A stretch of DNA of 48,834 bases from a virus. Positions 6,491 to 13,405 of the stretch are shown here, piece by piece; positions within the stretch are counted from its first letter, which is position 1; every line of letters starts with the position of its first letter. The DNA lies in the IMG/VR virus record IMGVR_UViG_3300005976_000005, positions 100,448 to 149,281 of that record; one strand, written 5' to 3'. Position numbers and translations under genes: made by a program. The notes under the pieces are model-generated. The model did no database searches and had not been told where the DNA came from. It was given only the letters and a program-made list of their open reading frames with translations.

Positions 6491-6887
6491 CTAACGACTC
6501 CTTATTTGTATTTATAGTCTTAAAATTAAATTTATGACTTATCTTCCATTCCATCTTCTGGTTATGAGGCAAGACAAATACAAACTTATTATGAGGTTCT
6601 ATTTCTTCATCACCAACTTCAATCAAACCCCAATTTTTAAGACAGAAAGCAATTGCGTTTCTTCTTAGTAAGTCATCTTCACATACTGAGTTATAGGCTG
6701 AATCTCTTGTCAAAAGAAACATCTGTTTAAAATGTACCAAAAAGGTCTTTCCATCCTGCTCATAAAGATAACAACTTGGATACAAAATCTTTTTCTTCTT
6801 GTTTGCGATTCCGATTCTATTAAGAGTTTCCTTTATTACCTTATCATCAACAAGAACTTTCACTTCAAGCAAATCATTAAAAGTCAT
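6483..6887 (-). CDS. regA: RegA translational repressor
   Basis: IKETLNRIGIANKKKKILYPSCYL...LVHFKQMF...RRNAIAFCLKNWGLIE parallels T4 RegA. Confidence 0.92.
   Translation of the reverse strand: MTFNDLLEVKVLVDDKVIKETLNRIGIANKKKKILYPSCYLYEQDGKTFLVHFKQMFLLTRDSAYNSVCEDDLLRRNAIAFCLKNWGLIEVGDEEIEPHNKFVFVLPHNQKMEWKISHKFNFKTINTNKESLDV
6509..6516 (-). promoter_or_regulatory. T4-type late promoter TATAAATA
   Basis: Exact consensus, upstream of the acidic/internal protein cluster. Confidence 0.6.
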
Positions 6888-7129
6888 ATTTCCTCCTTTA
6901 TATTAACTCTACAAACTTCCCAACCCTTATATTTCCTCTGTTGTTTTATTGATTGTTGTTTGATAAACTATCCTTAAATTTTATCAAAATAGGTTCTAAT
7001 CCACATTTCAATAATTTCCTAATCTTATTTACCAACATAAAATGGTTCATAATCAAACTCATACTCACCATACTTATATTTTCCTGGCTTTCTTGAATCC
7101 AAATAAACATATACATAATACTTATTCAT
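6884..7129 (-). pseudogene. Internally deleted GIY-YIG homing endonuclease relic
   Basis: Three out-of-frame pieces: MNKYYVYVYLDSRKPGKYKYGEYEFDYEPFYVGK*, NKIRKLLKCGLEPILIKFKDSLS and RKYKGWEVCRVNIKEEI* (stop overlaps the regA ATG). Confidence 0.75.
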
Positions 7130-7131
7130 AA

Positions 7132-7698
7132 TTAATATCCACAATTACCAGTAGTTGTTTTTGTTTCATATATTATTTCCTGATATGAGAAATTACCGGT
7201 AAAAGTAACTTCCTCACTTATACCAGCATTCAATGAAATAGAACCAAGTGTTACTAGAAATGCTTCTGTAAATCTCCAAACAACAATTGGCCTTTTCTGG
7301 TTGTCAAGGATATTTAGGTTAATTGACTTTATGGTGTATTTTCTAAAAAAATCTTCCTCACTATTAAAATCACCAACCTGTCCATATTTAAGAGCCTGCA
7401 TCCACTCAAAAAGATTTAGATAGTTCTTCATATCCTCCGACAGTTTGAACTCTACCTGTAATTGTGACAAGTCTTCATTAGCCTTAACACCACCAATAGG
7501 ATGCCTAATACGAAACCCTTTTATATCAGAATTGATTTCAAGAAGGTTATAATCTGGAAATACAACACTCTTAACGTAGTTATCGTACATTCTCATATCC
7601 CTAATTGTTTCCAATGATGGTATGTTAGAAAAGCTAACCTGCCACTTATCATTATGGAAAGTATTCGGGAAGTTTGCTGCTGGTGATGGATTAGTCAT
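7132..7698 (-). CDS. Tail tube terminator / tail completion protein (T4 gp3-like)
   Basis: LQVEFKLSEDMKNYLNLFEWM...LNILDNQKRPIVVWRFTEAF...LGSI resembles gp3. Confidence 0.8.
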   Translation of the reverse strand: MTNPSPAANFPNTFHNDKWQVSFSNIPSLETIRDMRMYDNYVKSVVFPDYNLLEINSDIKGFRIRHPIGGVKANEDLSQLQVEFKLSEDMKNYLNLFEWMQALKYGQVGDFNSEEDFFRKYTIKSINLNILDNQKRPIVVWRFTEAFLVTLGSISLNAGISEEVTFTGNFSYQEIIYETKTTTGNCGY

Positions 7699-7731
7699 TT
7701 TTATTACCTAATTTTTTCATCAATCTTTTGG

Positions 7732-7880
7732 CGGTCTTTTCCATTTCTTCTGTGACACTCCACGGGGCAAGCCCCGTGGCTTCTGCTTAGTTTTCTAAGC
7801 ATTCTTTTTCTTGCTTCAACGACAGTTCTATTGAACCATCTCCACAAGCGTTAATTCCGCTGTGCCCCAGCGTATTTCCT
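7732..7880 (-). ncRNA. Putative omega-RNA (reRNA) scaffold plus flanking guide of the IS605-type element
   Basis: TnpB guide RNAs are known to derive from the tnpB 3' end and right end; that segment is what is retained. Guide would be AGAAGAAATGGAAAAGACCG. Boundaries approximate. Confidence 0.55.
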
Positions 7881-7966
7881 ATCATTCCTATATTTAGAAT
7901 TTGTCAAGTGTTTTTTGAAAATATTTTGCCAATTCATCCCCGCCGCAAGCGGGAGGGGTTTTCTTG
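7752..7966 (-). mobile_element. Non-autonomous IS200/IS605-family (tnpB-derived) miniature element
   Basis: Left end CAAGAAAACCCC..GGGG with imperfect hairpin; right-end hairpin CCACGGGGC-TT-GCCCCGTGG ending TCAC; retains a TnpB-like C-terminal tail NTLGHSGINACGD..SLKQE; no target duplication; precise removal restores the host ORF. Confidence 0.85.
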
Positions 7967-8093
7967 GTGTTTCCTATAACAGTAATACAATCGTCCAAAC
8001 ATCCTTCATAGTGAAACTCTACAAATCCGTTACCATCGTCGTCTATTTTTGAACTAGTCAATTTCAACATATGGTTTAAGAAATATTTTTCCA

Positions 8094-8585
8094 CTATAGT
8101 AATTCCTCTATCTCCTCGTCGCTTTCTTTTACCAGAACTCTTAAAACATCAAAATTGAAATTTGTAGGAAGAGCCTCAAATCTACATTGAATGATGTCAA
8201 CTTCTACTTCCTCTTTCAGTATCTCATTGTAAATCTCAATTTCTTTTTCTCTTTCTTCTATAGCACTCTTAAATTTTTCTACCAACTTCATTACTTCATT
8301 CTGACATTCCAATTTTACTTCATCTGATGGAAATACAGGAATATTATCATTTACAGAAGAAGCATATTTCTTTATAGTTTCTATCTTCTTTGACTCAAAT
8401 TCTCTATATTCCTGAACACTACTTTCTCTTGACTTTACCAATTCGGAAGCGATTGGTTGAATGTTTGATAATGTTCTTGAAACTGCAAAGTTAAACCTCT
8501 TGTCATACTTTGTCAAGTCAGGATAATTTGCTTTCAAAGAATAAACAATGTCAAAAATCTGTCGGTTTGTCAAATTAACTTTCAT
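8094..8585 (-). CDS. Hypothetical helical protein
   Basis: 163-aa ORF with AGGAGG RBS; no recognised motif. Confidence 0.75.
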   Translation of the reverse strand: MKVNLTNRQIFDIVYSLKANYPDLTKYDKRFNFAVSRTLSNIQPIASELVKSRESSVQEYREFESKKIETIKKYASSVNDNIPVFPSDEVKLECQNEVMKLVEKFKSAIEEREKEIEIYNEILKEEVEVDIIQCRFEALPTNFNFDVLRVLVKESDEEIEELL

Positions 8586-8602
8586 GTAATCCTCCTTAAA
8601 CT

Positions 8603-11452
8603 CTATAAGAAAGCTCTATAAGTAATACAACAATTCAATAATCCTTTTTCTCCACTTGTATTCCAATGATAACCATCTATACTAGCATCCGTTCTGTTAA
8701 CGTATATAAAAGAAGTTGAAAATTTAATATATCCAACTAAATAATCTCCATTGAAATTTATAGGAACTGGCACAAACGAATTAACAGGAGGCTTTATTTC
8801 ACTAGGTATACCACCAACTGCTACTAAAGCAAATAAAGAACTGTTACTTTCTCCTTCTATAATTGGTATTTCCCAAGTTACAACATCTCCAATTCTTGTA
8901 TATAGTATGGTGTAAGTGATAGTATCAGTTGTCTCAAATACATCAGAGAATGGTTCTACTTCAAACGATCCTGTCTTATAATATGTCAAATTACTCTGTC
9001 CAAATGTTATAGAATCTGTTTCTATAGCATCTGTTTGTATAGAATCTGTTTGTATAGCATCTGCTTGAATGAGATCAGCATCAACCTCCGTTGCGTGAAC
9101 ATCTATAGAATTTACATCATGAGCAAACACATTATTAAATCTTTTGTCAGAAGTACCAAGATTAGTCACTTCATCCTGAATAGGTGTTATTAAAAGAGAT
9201 TCAAATCTAACTATACCTGCAACCAAAAACAAATCTGATGGTATTTCTATCAAATCATCCATAGGGTCCGGCAAACCTTCTCCCATTTTTTCTACTATGT
9301 CTTCGTAAGAAACGTCCGACTTCACACCAGCCCCAATAAACATCCTATTCTGAGGGTCTCTCGAAATTATTATAGCATTATTTTCATCGCCATCATCATT
9401 CTTAACCAGACTCTGGATTTCTATCGGTCCACGCAAACTTATCTTGTCTTCAGCAGTAATGTCTAATTCTAACGATCTGGCACTTATAGAAGATACTTTT
9501 AAATCGAAGAAAGATGCTTCTTCTATAAACGCATTCTCAACGTTAATTTCTTCAATGTATAAATTTTTAAACTTATAGCCGGGAGTACCAAGTAAAGTTC
9601 TTCCATCCTGAAGTGGCATTATTGTATAAGCCTCAACTCTAATATCATTGGAAACTAGATACAAAACTGAAATGTCATCTACCAAATCACTCATTGCGGG
9701 AATAAAGATACCGGAGCCCATTCTATTTGCTATTGTTTTGTGAGAAACGTCCGACTTCACACCAGCCCCAATAAACATCAAATTCTGAGGGTCTCTCGAA
9801 AGTATTATAGCATTATTTTCATCGCCATCATCATTCTTAACCAGACTCTGGATTTCTATTGGTCCGTGTAAACCTATTTCCCCCCTAGCAGCAATATGTA
9901 ATTCTGCTTCTGGTGCCAATCCATCATCATCACCAGCAGAAATTAATCCATATTGATCTATTCCGTTCATTATATTTTTATGAGTTGCACCAGATTGTCC
10001 ATCAGTTATTGAGAAAGTGTAATCTAAATTTAGACCAGCAAACAAATATATGTTTTCTGCTTCATTATCTCCGCTTGTTGTATTGTAAATTAATAAATCC
10101 GTATTATCTCTTACAATATCCCCACCTTTGAAGGCTCCGTATAAATCATTACCACTTGTAATTTCAACTCCAAGATCATTTAATCTCAAAGAGAATTTAT
10201 CATCGCCCATTTGTCCATCTGATTTACCAATTAAAACCTGATTTCCATTGAATTGTGCGGCGTAATTTTCTGAAAAATTCTCAACATTCAAAGTTATAAT
10301 ATCATCGAGACCACCATAGTTCCATAACCACAACTCCCTAAACGAATTATCAAACGTTCCGAGAGAAATGGAAGAATCTATAAAAGGTTTTATAGCTAAA
10401 GCATCTCCAGTATATTCTTCCCAACCAGGATTAATAACCATATCACCACCATCAACCTCACCACTTCTAATGTCGTGCCCATCCGATACAACTTCTATTG
10501 TCCAATACTTATTATCATCCTGGTCAATTCTGAGTTGTGGAATATCATCATCTATTTCTCCATCTTTTCTTTCTCTTCTAATGTGCATAGTAGCACTTAT
10601 TTCTTTCTGTCCATCCTCAAAAACACCAACACCAATTCTACCAGGATAATAAAGTCCACCAGGGCTGTGACTCCAATAATCAGCGGAAGACGAATAAAAC
10701 ACATCGTTCCAATCAGCAGATACACCACTAAGATCAATTTGAACATCTGCCTCAAACAAATCATACCCAACACCAATGTCTGATCTAACAGCAACATTAG
10801 AAAGATATGCTTCACCAAAATATCCAATACTATTAGGTATGTCATCTCCATTAGCATCAACAGCAACAGCATACATTGCTATCTTGTTGAATTTTATATT
10901 TCCCCAATTACTATCAATTTGAAACTTGAATGATCCTCTCAATCTATCTTCATCGGGACCATCGTATGTTGGGTAATATCCAACAGTAGTTCCAAATCCA
11001 TCAGCACCAGTACCTGGTTGCGAATCATCCCCTTCTATACCTTGACCACCCGCAATTGCTTCCCAAGTCCAAAGAGATTCTCCGCCTGTTGCTGACCAGC
11101 TTGTGGCGCTAACTTGATTCGAAAGTGGGGTTCCACCATACAAGTTTGTTACAACGGAAGATTTCTGGTACGTATTAGTCAATTTAGAAGAATTGAAATC
11201 AACAGCAGAAATCAAAAATGTAGAAGCGTCTCCAAGAGTATGCTTTCTTTTCCAAAGCTTTTCACCATAAGGCTCTGTTATAGTTTTGTCGGCAATATCT
11301 GAGAATGAAGAAAGTACTGGTGAATTTCTTACACTTGAGTCTATTCTATCATCATAAACAGGGATAAAATATCGCAAGTCAATGTAGATACCATTGTCGT
11401 TTGCTGATGATACAAAGTCCATTCCCTTATCTGTAATGAGTACATTAGGCAT
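8603..11452 (-). CDS. Tail fibre / baseplate-attached fibre-like protein
   Basis: N-terminal VLITDKG...FNKIAMY resembles fibre attachment domains; LGT...F..L[WYF] repeats, IQTD[AS] pentapeptide repeats, C-terminal YTRIGDVVT...IPSEIKP receptor-binding-like tip. Confidence 0.65.
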   Translation of the reverse strand: MPNVLITDKGMDFVSSANDNGIYIDLRYFIPVYDDRIDSSVRNSPVLSSFSDIADKTITEPYGEKLWKRKHTLGDASTFLISAVDFNSSKLTNTYQKSSVVTNLYGGTPLSNQVSATSWSATGGESLWTWEAIAGGQGIEGDDSQPGTGADGFGTTVGYYPTYDGPDEDRLRGSFKFQIDSNWGNIKFNKIAMYAVAVDANGDDIPNSIGYFGEAYLSNVAVRSDIGVGYDLFEADVQIDLSGVSADWNDVFYSSSADYWSHSPGGLYYPGRIGVGVFEDGQKEISATMHIRRERKDGEIDDDIPQLRIDQDDNKYWTIEVVSDGHDIRSGEVDGGDMVINPGWEEYTGDALAIKPFIDSSISLGTFDNSFRELWLWNYGGLDDIITLNVENFSENYAAQFNGNQVLIGKSDGQMGDDKFSLRLNDLGVEITSGNDLYGAFKGGDIVRDNTDLLIYNTTSGDNEAENIYLFAGLNLDYTFSITDGQSGATHKNIMNGIDQYGLISAGDDDGLAPEAELHIAARGEIGLHGPIEIQSLVKNDDGDENNAIILSRDPQNLMFIGAGVKSDVSHKTIANRMGSGIFIPAMSDLVDDISVLYLVSNDIRVEAYTIMPLQDGRTLLGTPGYKFKNLYIEEINVENAFIEEASFFDLKVSSISARSLELDITAEDKISLRGPIEIQSLVKNDDGDENNAIIISRDPQNRMFIGAGVKSDVSYEDIVEKMGEGLPDPMDDLIEIPSDLFLVAGIVRFESLLITPIQDEVTNLGTSDKRFNNVFAHDVNSIDVHATEVDADLIQADAIQTDSIQTDAIETDSITFGQSNLTYYKTGSFEVEPFSDVFETTDTITYTILYTRIGDVVTWEIPIIEGESNSSLFALVAVGGIPSEIKPPVNSFVPVPINFNGDYLVGYIKFSTSFIYVNRTDASIDGYHWNTSGEKGLLNCCITYRAFL
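9308..9865. repeat. Near-identical ~123-bp in-frame direct repeat (9308-9430 and 9743-9865)
   Basis: Both encode GPIEIQSLVKNDDGDENNAII.SRDPQN.MFIGAGVKSDVS. Confidence 0.9.
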
Positions 11453-11545
11453 TTTACGTCTCCCAAATCAATTTATTAGATTTCTTCAAATTATTTTCTT
11501 TTATCAATATTTGTATTTTCAAAACATCATTCTTTTACTTTCAAT

Positions 11546-11553
11546 TATTTATA
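11546..11553 (-). promoter_or_regulatory. T4-type late promoter TATAAATA upstream of the fibre gene
   Basis: Exact consensus, intergenic. Confidence 0.65.
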
Positions 11554-11557
11554 TTAT

Positions 11558-11765
11558 CCGTTCTGAAAAACTTATAGAATCTTTGCAAGACTCATGTTTT
11601 CTTCCTGCTTCGTAGAAACCGCCTCTTCAAAACCTAAATTTTGATTTGGTCTTACGCTTTCTCCACAGGCTTTAATTCTACTTTATAGGCTTTATTTATT
11701 TTCATTTTTATTAGATTTAGTTAGATTTTGCTAAATTTCTATAAATTATTTATATCTGCTATTAT
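11558..11765 (-). mobile_element. Non-autonomous IS607-family (tnpB-derived) miniature element with omega-RNA region
   Basis: AT-rich left end with short repeats (aaatctaa x2); TnpB start MKINKAYKVELKP fused directly to the tnpB 3' segment GCCTGTGGAGA..GTAAGACC..GAAGCAGGAAG; IS607-type right end ..ATAAGTTTTTCAGAACGG; inserted at a GG. Confidence 0.75.
11747..11754 (-). promoter_or_regulatory. TATAAATA late promoter motif inside the IS607-type element
   Basis: Exact consensus pointing into the element. Confidence 0.5.
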
Positions 11766-13405
11766 CCCCAACCATTACTATATCCATCCGATTCAATGAC
11801 GGCGTACCTTGTCATTCTAACATATCCACCAACATATATATTCAAAACTCTATTTACATATCCGACAAGTTTCCTAAACACTGTATTTATTGGTCTGATT
11901 GATTCTATTGCTCTTATAACCTTTTGTCTTCTCTGTATATCTGTTGAGATATCCTCGCTTACGTCAAAATCAACACTCACTGCGAAATGCGGGGTCGGAA
12001 AAAAGTTATCCGGAATTGTACTCAAATCTCCATGTTGATCCAATATCCATTTTCCACCAGCACTTGTTGGTAAGTAGCTATCCGTAAAATATTCTAAAAC
12101 TTCAGCAACCAATCCAAAGGAATAAAGCATAACCTTGATAGAATTTCTTGTTGTTTTTATCTTATACCAAGTTGGTAAGTTTCTCACAACAAATCTGAGA
12201 TACTTATTTATGTCACTAGCAGAACAAGCACCACCAAACTCGGTAGTACCGAATGTATCTGTTGAACCAACAACTTCTACTTCTTCTCTTGAGACATTTA
12301 CGTTATACCCAAGATTGGCTGCGAAAAACTGAATGAATTCTATATCTATCAAGTCAGGATCGTGTAACTCCGTCAACCTATGTACTTTCTCAAGAATTGA
12401 AATCTTTTGAGCCGAAGTAGCATATTGAGCATTTGTTGGCCAATGAAGTTCTATTTGCTCTGCGTCAGTAGATTCGGTTGGAGTATCAGTTCCACAAAGG
12501 TCATAAGTAAACTCCCTGTTTACTTCAGCAGAAACTGAACCTACAGATGACACTGACCAGTCCTCAGTAATATTTAGTTCGTTTGCGCTTAACTGCCATC
12601 CACAAAGACCATTGAACATATTGTTGAGGAAGTCCTCAAAAAATATCACGAAGTCCTCTGTTTCTCCTCCCTTCAAGTAAAGAGGAAGGTAATCTCTGAG
12701 ATTTATTCTTCTACAGTCACCGTACCTACCTAGCATATCAGGACCACATACAGTTATGTAATCCTCCTTTGCCTCGCAGACATCACCACCCAATATACTT
12801 ATGGAAGCAGTATCCGATCCACCATTTCCACTAACATCGTAAGCCGTCACAGAAACAATATAAGTTCCTACTGAAGAATATGTATGCTCAAGAGTTGCCG
12901 TCAAGTCTGTTGTTGATGAAGTGGAACCATCTCCAAAATCCCAATCAGCACTAACAACAGTGTTAGCAAAGTAGTTGGCTCCATTAGCATCACTGAAACC
13001 CAAAGCGGAGTTTGGTAAAGGAGTTCCTGAGAACTGAATATCTGGTAATGGGTTAATCTTCAGTGTCAATGAATAATCTGTGTCTGTTACAACAAGACTT
13101 CCATTTGCGTAAACATCACTCTTGACACCAGCACCAGCAAACGTCCCCTTGACAGGATATTGGTACTGAAGCGAAGAACTATTAGTAGAAGATGTTTCTC
13201 CATTGTATACAAACTTGAACTCATTTTCTATTGTCCAAGTTGGATCAAATGAATCAGAATCTGATAATGCCGAGAATGTAATATCGTTGTTTACGAAATT
13301 TATGTTGGAGTCTACGGCAGCAGAAATGCTGTAATCAAAACTTCCAAAGTAGAAAGCTCCTACACCATCTCTATCGTTTCCCCACAGTCCAGTATTATAA
13401 CTCAT
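11762..13405 (-). CDS. Baseplate wedge protein (gp7/P2 gpI-like C-terminus) with N-terminal PKD domain
   Basis: WDFGDGS..HTYSSVGTYIVSVT (PKD); LRDYLPLY...DPDLIDIEFIQFFAANLG...LPTWYKIKTT...IESIRPINT. Confidence 0.7.
   Translation of the reverse strand: MSYNTGLWGNDRDGVGAFYFGSFDYSISAAVDSNINFVNNDITFSALSDSDSFDPTWTIENEFKFVYNGETSSTNSSSLQYQYPVKGTFAGAGVKSDVYANGSLVVTDTDYSLTLKINPLPDIQFSGTPLPNSALGFSDANGANYFANTVVSADWDFGDGSTSSTTDLTATLEHTYSSVGTYIVSVTAYDVSGNGGSDTASISILGGDVCEAKEDYITVCGPDMLGRYGDCRRINLRDYLPLYLKGGETEDFVIFFEDFLNNMFNGLCGWQLSANELNITEDWSVSSVGSVSAEVNREFTYDLCGTDTPTESTDAEQIELHWPTNAQYATSAQKISILEKVHRLTELHDPDLIDIEFIQFFAANLGYNVNVSREEVEVVGSTDTFGTTEFGGACSASDINKYLRFVVRNLPTWYKIKTTRNSIKVMLYSFGLVAEVLEYFTDSYLPTSAGGKWILDQHGDLSTIPDNFFPTPHFAVSVDFDVSEDISTDIQRRQKVIRAIESIRPINTVFRKLVGYVNRVLNIYVGGYVRMTRYAVIESDGYSNGWG

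Follow-up and report, generated by a model that had tools for sequence, protein, structure and literature searches.

A 224-bp protein-less IS200/IS605 derivative with a predicted omega-RNA scaffold and a natural empty allele in a T4-like phage

Protein-less members of the IS200/IS605 group are known from bacteria. Palindrome-associated transposable elements (PATEs) often carry an omega-RNA whose TnpB has to come in trans, and PATE-like elements without protein genes occur in Geobacillus stearothermophilus (Meers et al., PMC10055086); a further PATE-like element, of 271 nt, has been described in Halanaerobium hydrogeniformans (PMC7290912). Here we describe a 224-bp element of this type, referred to as the mini element, in a 48,834-nt stretch of DNA (the window; G000:C1:100448-149281) from the 149,281-bp IMG/VR virus record IMGVR_UViG_3300005976_000005, which represents an uncultivated, T4-like phage of a salt lake or hypersaline lake and is 58% complete. 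Like PATEs, the mini element is short, has no open reading frame (ORF) and keeps both hairpin ends, and like the H. hydrogeniformans element it joins a left-end piece to the last tnpB codons and a right end. Unlike bacterial PATEs, it resides in a T4-like phage, interrupts a phage ORF and has an exact empty allele in natural samples. In our judgement the locus is best, and probably, explained as a PATE-type deletion derivative that is served in trans, with possible RNA-guided homing. The kind of element and the idea of a guide-only PATE with TnpB in trans are already published (PMC10055086); what is new is the phage setting, the natural pair of filled and empty alleles, and the exact prediction of a target-adjacent motif (TAM) and a guide.

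All features of the mini element lie on the minus strand, in the same orientation as the flanking phage genes. Those that define the element and its ends are the following.

7752..7975, minus strand: protein-less IS200/IS605 derivative (PATE-like), 224 bp, with homology to both ends of 1.87-kb elements; contig joints skip these 224 bp.
7976..7979, minus strand: TTAT, the putative TnpA target and cleavage motif and predicted TnpB TAM, immediately 5' of the left end; a G stands at 7980.
7890..7975, minus strand: left-end segment, comprising 17 nt, AAAA (7962..7959), the hairpin 7958..7938 and the -35 relic TTGACA (7907..7902).
7958..7938, minus strand: left-end hairpin, GC-rich, with a T.C mismatch in the window copy.
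7779..7760, minus strand: right-end hairpin, perfect, CCACGGGGC-TT-GCCCCGTGG.
7755..7752, minus strand: TCAC, the right terminus, the same end as in more than 20 related copies.

On the minus strand the flank and left junction read ...ACT GTT AT, then 17 nt, then the GC-rich hairpin, while the right-end hairpin is followed on its 3' side by AGTGTCAC, then AGAAGAAATGG.... The element retains 86 left-end nucleotides together with the final 147 nt. Both hairpins correspond by homology to the ends of full-length elements, and the left stems show covariation across relatives. Such subterminal hairpins stand in place of terminal inverted repeats. The mini stretch folds far better than its shuffles (z = -4.45), and its only coding trace is a tnpB remnant with a stop; no credible ORF was found in it. 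An earlier reading of this DNA, made from the letters alone (the sequence-only reading), had recognized a protein-less IS200/IS605 derivative with both hairpins, a right end finishing in TCAC and no target duplication (we likewise find none at 7976-7980 or 7751), all of which stand. Its length of 215 bp gives way to 224 bp (7975..7752): conservation of the left end in relatives starts at GTTAT, nine bases upstream of the 215-bp boundary, and the contig joints, the uninterrupted homologues and the fit to the geometry of IS608 agree with this. Its TAM-like AACAC is likewise replaced: TTAT lies directly 5' of the element at all ten independent insertion sites of the family, and GTTAT at nine of the ten. 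The right ends all finish in TCAC, and the flanks beyond are unrelated.

In IS608 of Helicobacter pylori, cleavage takes place 19 nt 5' of the foot of the left hairpin, at a site that is read by AAAG for TTAC (PMC3201880). The mini element resembles IS608 in inserting 3' of a tetranucleotide, in a left cleavage 17-19 nt 5' of the hairpin foot (here 17-18 nt) and in a right cleavage a few nucleotides 3' of the right hairpin foot. The four bases 5' of the left hairpin mirror the cleavage site in both, as AAAA/TTAT here and AAAG/TTAC there; AAAA (7962..7959) occupies the position of the IS608 guide GL and faces TTAT. At the right end GAAG precedes the hairpin, with TCAC as the cleavage site, and we take the IS608 counterpart to be GAAT (GR) with TCAA. 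The two differ in their hairpin sequences, and the pairing rule given here is one read from sequence alone.

Relatives were sought with a 24-nt right-end pattern, which identified 11 viral contigs and 7 genome contigs. BLAST splits the mini element (in 215-bp numbering) into positions 1-77, which match the left end of 1.68-1.87-kb elements (L007, L011, L014, L019), and positions 69-215, which match the right end of full-length elements with 82-92% identity. Between the same ends, L014 carries a 134-aa Y1 transposase (PF01797 Y1_Tnp, E 2.7e-36) and a 407-aa TnpB with Pfam matches to OrfB_IS605, Cas12f1-like_TNB and HTH_OrfB_IS605. This TnpB aligns along its whole length with that of ISDra2 (8H1J; E 1.2e-60), and the three RuvC motifs (D/E/D) and the CxxC pairs are conserved. 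A full-length element with the same ends, for which the sequence-only reading had called, thus exists in phage contigs and metagenome-assembled genomes (MAGs) and encodes a Y1 TnpA and an ISDra2-like TnpB. Two features of the mini element reflect its descent from such elements.

7890..7898, minus strand: deletion junction TCTAAATAT, 9 nt that the left end has in common with the 3' region of tnpB and in which BLAST segments 1-77 and 69-215 overlap.
7790..7909, minus strand: tnpB C-terminal remnant that matches the 407-aa TnpB over residues 367-407 and has one internal TGA (80% identity, E 9.5e-14); not a plausible gene.

In full-length elements, TCTAAATAT occurs after the left-end promoter and again in the 3' region of tnpB. 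The sequence-only reading was right that tnpB C-terminal codons remain; it had fused them to an ATG through an ATAGGA microhomology, which the BLAST overlap and the alignments supersede, and the ATG is incidental. Full-length elements read TTGACA-N17-TATATT, followed by tnpA, and by this comparison TTGACA represents the -35 box of a tnpA promoter that the mini element has lost. The TTGACA noted earlier at 7907..7902 is therefore present, as a -35 relic and not as a working promoter. On these alignments, the mini element is an internal deletion derivative of a 1.87-kb tnpA+tnpB element.

The full-length elements lie elsewhere: Syntrophomonadaceae MAGs from soda-lake sediments contain them, as do other large phage records, among them a complete 140-kb genome. 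The tail-tube protein encoded beside the mini element had no match in five viral records that carry full-length elements, which are therefore different phages. In metagenome run X4, loose contig ends at 7856 and 7890 lead on into sequence of tnpB and of the left end that resembles full-length copies such as L010 and L011. Two observations concern the relatives themselves. The full-length element of L014 (region 10087-12859) sits within an apparent HNH-type homing endonuclease gene, with ORF pieces reading through both ends. In L017:1312-2729 and L020:5253-5284, a different cargo of ~1.4 kb, without the tnpB tail, is bracketed by the shared left end (88% identical) and by the shared 32-nt hairpin and terminus of the right end, a pattern that points to modular exchange between identical ends.

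A close known system for comparison is the TnpB of ISDra2 from Deinococcus radiodurans with its omega-RNA (PDB 8H1J, 8EXA; PMC10097598, PMC8612924). In its 116-nt scaffold, positions -5..-3 pair with -105..-103 in a pseudoknot, and everything 5' of -116 is dispensable (PMC10097598). The corresponding predicted features of the mini element are given below.

7752..7891, minus strand: predicted omega-RNA scaffold, with helix 1, a long-range pairing, two internal hairpins, the right-end hairpin (7779..7760) and TCAC (7755..7752).
7872..7868 with 7862..7858, minus strand: helix 1, part of the covariation-supported structure.
7736..7751, minus strand: predicted 16-nt guide AGAAGAAATGGAAAAG in the right flank, placed by position from ISDra2 TnpB/omega-RNA anatomy (PMC10097598).

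The RNA alignment comprised the last ~150 nt of 16 copies, from near-identical ones to copies whose TnpB is ~42% identical. RNAalifold yielded five helices with 31 pairs, 17 of which show compensatory changes, and 98.1% of the cells are paired in that structure. The covariation score of 0.380 compares with 0.145 +/- 0.014 in shuffles (none of 500 reached 0.380) and falls to 0.066 or less once the partners are slid by 1-3 columns. A covariance model was built from 14 copies, leaving out the mini element and a truncated second copy in the same record (copy2, described below). It scores the mini element at 154.1 bits (E 1.9e-36), with the full model covered and no non-standard pair, which nearly equals the scores of the full-length elements. 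The model also pairs ACGC (7851..7848) with GUGU (7758..7755), in columns that are nearly invariant and beyond the reach of covariation; their placement is similar to that of the ISDra2 pseudoknot. No Rfam 15 family matches the window at the gathering score, or 7500-8300 at E values up to 10, a result that says no more than that its models stayed below threshold here. The tnpB remnant and the scaffold overlap, the scaffold stops at the boundary of the element, and the 147 nt retained are enough for the whole scaffold. To judge by the family model, which bears out the earlier assignment of an omega-RNA region in spite of the absent Rfam match, a complete omega-RNA scaffold is retained in the mini element.

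The likeness to ISDra2 covers the TnpB of the full-length relatives, a multi-stem scaffold of ~116-140 nt that overlaps the 3' end of tnpB, a long-range pairing (here a predicted one) of the last bases before the guide with a segment ~100 nt upstream, and the predicted 16-nt guide in the right flank. The differences are the family TAM (TTAT, against TTGAT in ISDra2), the right end TCAC, the lack of Rfam-detectable RNA similarity and, in the mini element, the deletion of the nuclease gene. A guide function of the mini element RNA is plausible. Within the filled genome, TCAC rather than TTAT stands before the guide sequence, and the 149-kb record contains no site with TTAT plus guide; the empty allele has TTAT followed by the predicted guide AGAAGAAATGGAAAAG. 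This arrangement, TTAT+guide against TCAC+guide, matches the discrimination of self from target by TAM and transposon-encoded motif (TEM) described by Meers et al. (PMC10055086).

The insertion site lies in a short ORF between two larger phage genes, as listed here.

8585..8094, minus strand: 163-aa ORF, directly upstream of the small ORF.
7976..8094, minus strand: 5' part of the small ORF, whose GTG start at 8094 overlaps the stop of the 163-aa gene; codons 1-39 plus 2 nt, ending in GTTAT (7980..7976). Homologues P0001 and P0002 align through this part.
7691..7751, minus strand: 3' part of the small ORF, reading EEMEKTAKRLMKKLGNKND; its stop (7693..7691) overlaps the tail-tube ATG (7698..7696).
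7698..7132, minus strand: gp19-like tail-tube gene, 188 aa, a weak match to T4 gp19; ATG at 7698..7696.
Beyond the tail-tube gene: RegA-like translational regulator.

Removal of the 224 bp restores a 59-aa ORF in frame and without a scar. The earlier claim that exact excision restores an ORF holds, with 59 rather than 62 residues. A search with the 59-aa excision product found two uninterrupted homologous proteins, which read ...DDCVTVIEEMEKSAKRLMKKLGNKK (P0001) and ...NDCVVVVEELEKTAKRIMRKLGMR (P0002) across the site. Both have TVI|EEMEK and lack GNT, the extra residues expected after removal of only 215 bp. At the codon of the insertion site, where the window encodes Ile, P0001 has Val. The truncated product of the filled allele is present in the protein collection as P0003. 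Taken together, these proteins indicate that the interrupted small ORF is real and conserved. It is absent from 16 related T4-like phage loci, in which the 163-aa gene abuts the tail-tube gene; these loci are thus unusable as empty sites, and the ORF is dispensable. Relatives of the tail-tube gene occur on contigs of up to 264 kb, and BLASTN of 7100-8600 against GenBank phages gave no match.

Public metagenomes contain the phage and both states of the site. Of the sampled words of 6500-9500, 86-96% are present in three hypersaline-lake runs and ~20% in microbial-mat runs. In runs X1, X2 and X4, contigs pass directly from 7749 to 7974 and so skip 224 nt, which with a 2-nt ambiguity corresponds exactly to 7752..7975, that is, 7751 joined to 7976. 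This is the empty site that the sequence-only reading had predicted. In X4 the joint lies on a 584-nt contig with 239 and 344 nt on its two sides. The filled allele and the empty allele are present in the same metagenomes. In X1 and X2, depths are 18.7 and 18.5 for the flanking unitig of one side, 14.5 and 12.9 for that of the opposite side, 5.2 and 12.4 for the unitig of the filled right-end junction (7722-7781), and 5.9 and 9.5 for the empty joint. We conclude that the two alleles coexist at comparable levels. No empty joint was seen in X3.

We considered the possibility that a repeat-induced misassembly had placed the element in the phage contig. Its 95-nt right-end part is indeed repeated in the genome, with about double the unitig depth. 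Both junctions, however, are covered without mismatches in three runs (X1 and X2, 7722-7781 and 7817-8016; X3, 6500-7781 and 7817-8359), and the truncated product predicted from the filled allele exists as P0003, which leaves such a chimera a negligible probability. The three runs may stem from one sampling campaign, and one of them may be the source of the assembly.

The flanking unitigs are unbranched over 1252 and 1351 nt of the examined stretch and appear to be shared by both alleles, which suggests a recent event. The right flank unitig starts at 7987, not 7976, and there may be a linked difference within 11 nt of the site. More distant relatives are also in the empty state, namely X4 (~93% identical) and P0002, and the empty state is thus ancestral. 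The empty joint and the read-through homologues establish that an empty allele exists; they do not by themselves show excision.

A scarless excision that restores the frame, a small ORF whose stop overlaps the tail-tube start, and the coexistence of both alleles would also fit a reversible gene switch, in which excision and re-insertion by TnpA toggle the 59-aa ORF, or its coupling to the tail-tube gene, to the benefit of the phage. We consider this very unlikely: the ORF is missing, and hence dispensable, at the 16 related loci, and it has no known function or selective benefit. Moreover, re-insertion of IS200/IS605 elements at the same site is untargeted, TnpB-driven homing aside.

The element must obtain its proteins elsewhere. 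No match to Y1 TnpA and none to the OrfB_IS605 domain was found in the 149-kb record; as this is 58% complete, the absence of both from the whole phage is not proven. A search of the record with the L014 TnpB matched only two C-terminal remnants. The earlier suggestion that the element borrows TnpA and TnpB in trans agrees with these results and with the compatible full-length elements found elsewhere. The identity of the element and its dependence on TnpA and TnpB in trans are near certain, and the mobility of the mini element in trans appears well grounded.

The truncated second copy in the record is the following.

L002:1505-1603 (G000:C1:77339-77437, outside the window), minus strand: copy2, truncated at its 5' side to the final ~95-99 nt of the element; it matches the mini element with 100% identity over 95 nt.

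Copy2 starts at TGTGGAG; the left end, helix 1 and the predicted pseudoknot's ACGC strand are all missing from it. A different small ORF is interrupted by copy2 (MIFDEYYLKESFYQDDEKY..., continuing ESIRKIVNGK...), with no TTAT at the left junction. In L076:1-400 (Ga0081528_110111), and at loose ends of X1 and X2 at 7752, the left flank of copy2 and the fragment are followed, right after TCAC, by a ParB-like gene with a DGHHR motif. This gene is absent from the 149-kb record, and the different gene after TCAC marks the right end of copy2 as a breakpoint between phage variants of the same samples. Other TnpB-related pieces were seen in the record. At 11565-11704 of the window (minus strand), a weak match to the covariance model (22.1 bits, E 0.0017) coincides with a TnpB-like N-terminal sequence, MKINKAYKVELKP, fused to a C-terminal ...CGESVRPNQ...STKQEE tail. 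A partial Cas12f1-like_TNB remnant, the TnpB zinc ribbon, lies at G000:C1:27304-27414 (plus strand, in L075; 34.3 bits, profile positions 30-60) and is all that this model matches in the record. The phage seems to hold several TnpB-derived minis. Separately, at ~7.7-9.7 kb of G000, L078:2256-2876 (minus strand) encodes a 206-aa serine recombinase with a Resolvase N-terminal domain (E 6e-15). The adjacent 445-aa ORF (L078:932-2269, minus strand) was examined as a possible partner TnpB. With a Pfam threshold of 0.01 it has no match, and it is not significantly similar to the TnpB of L014; on this evidence it is no candidate.

In this family, decayed copies reduced to the right end are common, as copy2 in L002 and two 47-nt fragments in L015 illustrate, and they raise the alternative that the mini element is an inert hitch-hiker. 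It would then be the dead, immobile relic of one accidental transposition into replicating phage DNA, its RNA idle, and the polymorphism an insertion not yet fixed or lost. Several observations that weigh against our preferred explanation, a derivative served in trans, bear on this choice. The left hairpin of the window copy has its T.C mismatch and a changed bulge base relative to relatives, which could impair TnpA binding; in run X3 a variant left hairpin (7953 G>C, 7954 deleted) has a perfect 9-bp stem. The internal promoter has lost its -10 box, and a promoter scan of the element strand scored no sigma-70-like site. None of the sequencing runs listed with this phage is an RNA run. The record holds neither TnpA nor a cognate TnpB, and any cognate TnpB in infected cells is hypothetical. 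Junction-specific patterns found the same deletion junction in no other viral or metagenome contig, and there is thus no proof that the mini element transposed more than once. The empty joints of X1 and X2 lie on short unitigs, with 28 nt on the shorter side, and their empty allele could be ancestral, like the state of X4 and P0002, rather than an excision product. Against an inert relic stand the five scaffold helices, all intact in the mini element, with an independent model score near that of full-length elements, and the long unbranched flanks apparently common to both alleles, with the recent event that they suggest. We regard the inert reading as possible, and clearly less probable than a derivative served in trans.

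For the derivative served in trans, we propose the following course. A TnpA supplied by the host, or by a co-infecting phage with a full-length element, would have pasted the mini element into single-stranded phage DNA, and the same TnpA may excise it. The element is co-oriented with the surrounding late genes, so that read-through transcripts would hold scaffold and guide. A cognate TnpB, if present in the cell, would form with this RNA a ribonucleoprotein that cuts TTAT+AGAAGAAATGGAAAAG, the empty allele, while the filled allele, with TCAC in place of TTAT, would be spared. Through recombinational repair, co-infecting phages would then gain the element. This RNA-guided homing step is plausible. 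Its outcome would resemble that of the homing of free-standing endonucleases in T-even phages (Seg, Mob) and of 'transposon non-restorative homing' (PMC13565253), in which a cut in the element-less allele of a co-infecting phage is repaired from the carrier; it would differ in that the mini element brings a guide RNA only and borrows the nuclease. In bacteria, engineered elements have demonstrated TnpB-guided homing. To our knowledge, its spread from one co-infecting phage to another has up to now been treated as no more than a possibility. Transposon homing into co-infecting phages is one of the categories in a 2026 review (PMC13565253).

The locus unites, in one natural phage population, a filled allele, an exact empty allele and an intact scaffold whose predicted target is that empty allele. 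It thereby offers a concrete TAM (TTAT), guide and target for a cleavage or homing test. It also illustrates that IS200/IS605 minis do enter large lytic-type phage genomes, and even if the RNA is inert, the locus remains a clean and dated case of transposition into phage DNA by the single-strand route. A more far-reaching idea, which we think unlikely, is that nuclease-free, guide-only elements act as RNA-guided gene drives, in which omega-RNA from late-gene read-through and a TnpB borrowed from the host or a co-infecting phage would cut rival genomes that lack the element. If this were true, the element would spread by recombinational repair, or rivals would be excluded, and several such elements in one jumbo phage would represent a recurrent strategy, not decay.

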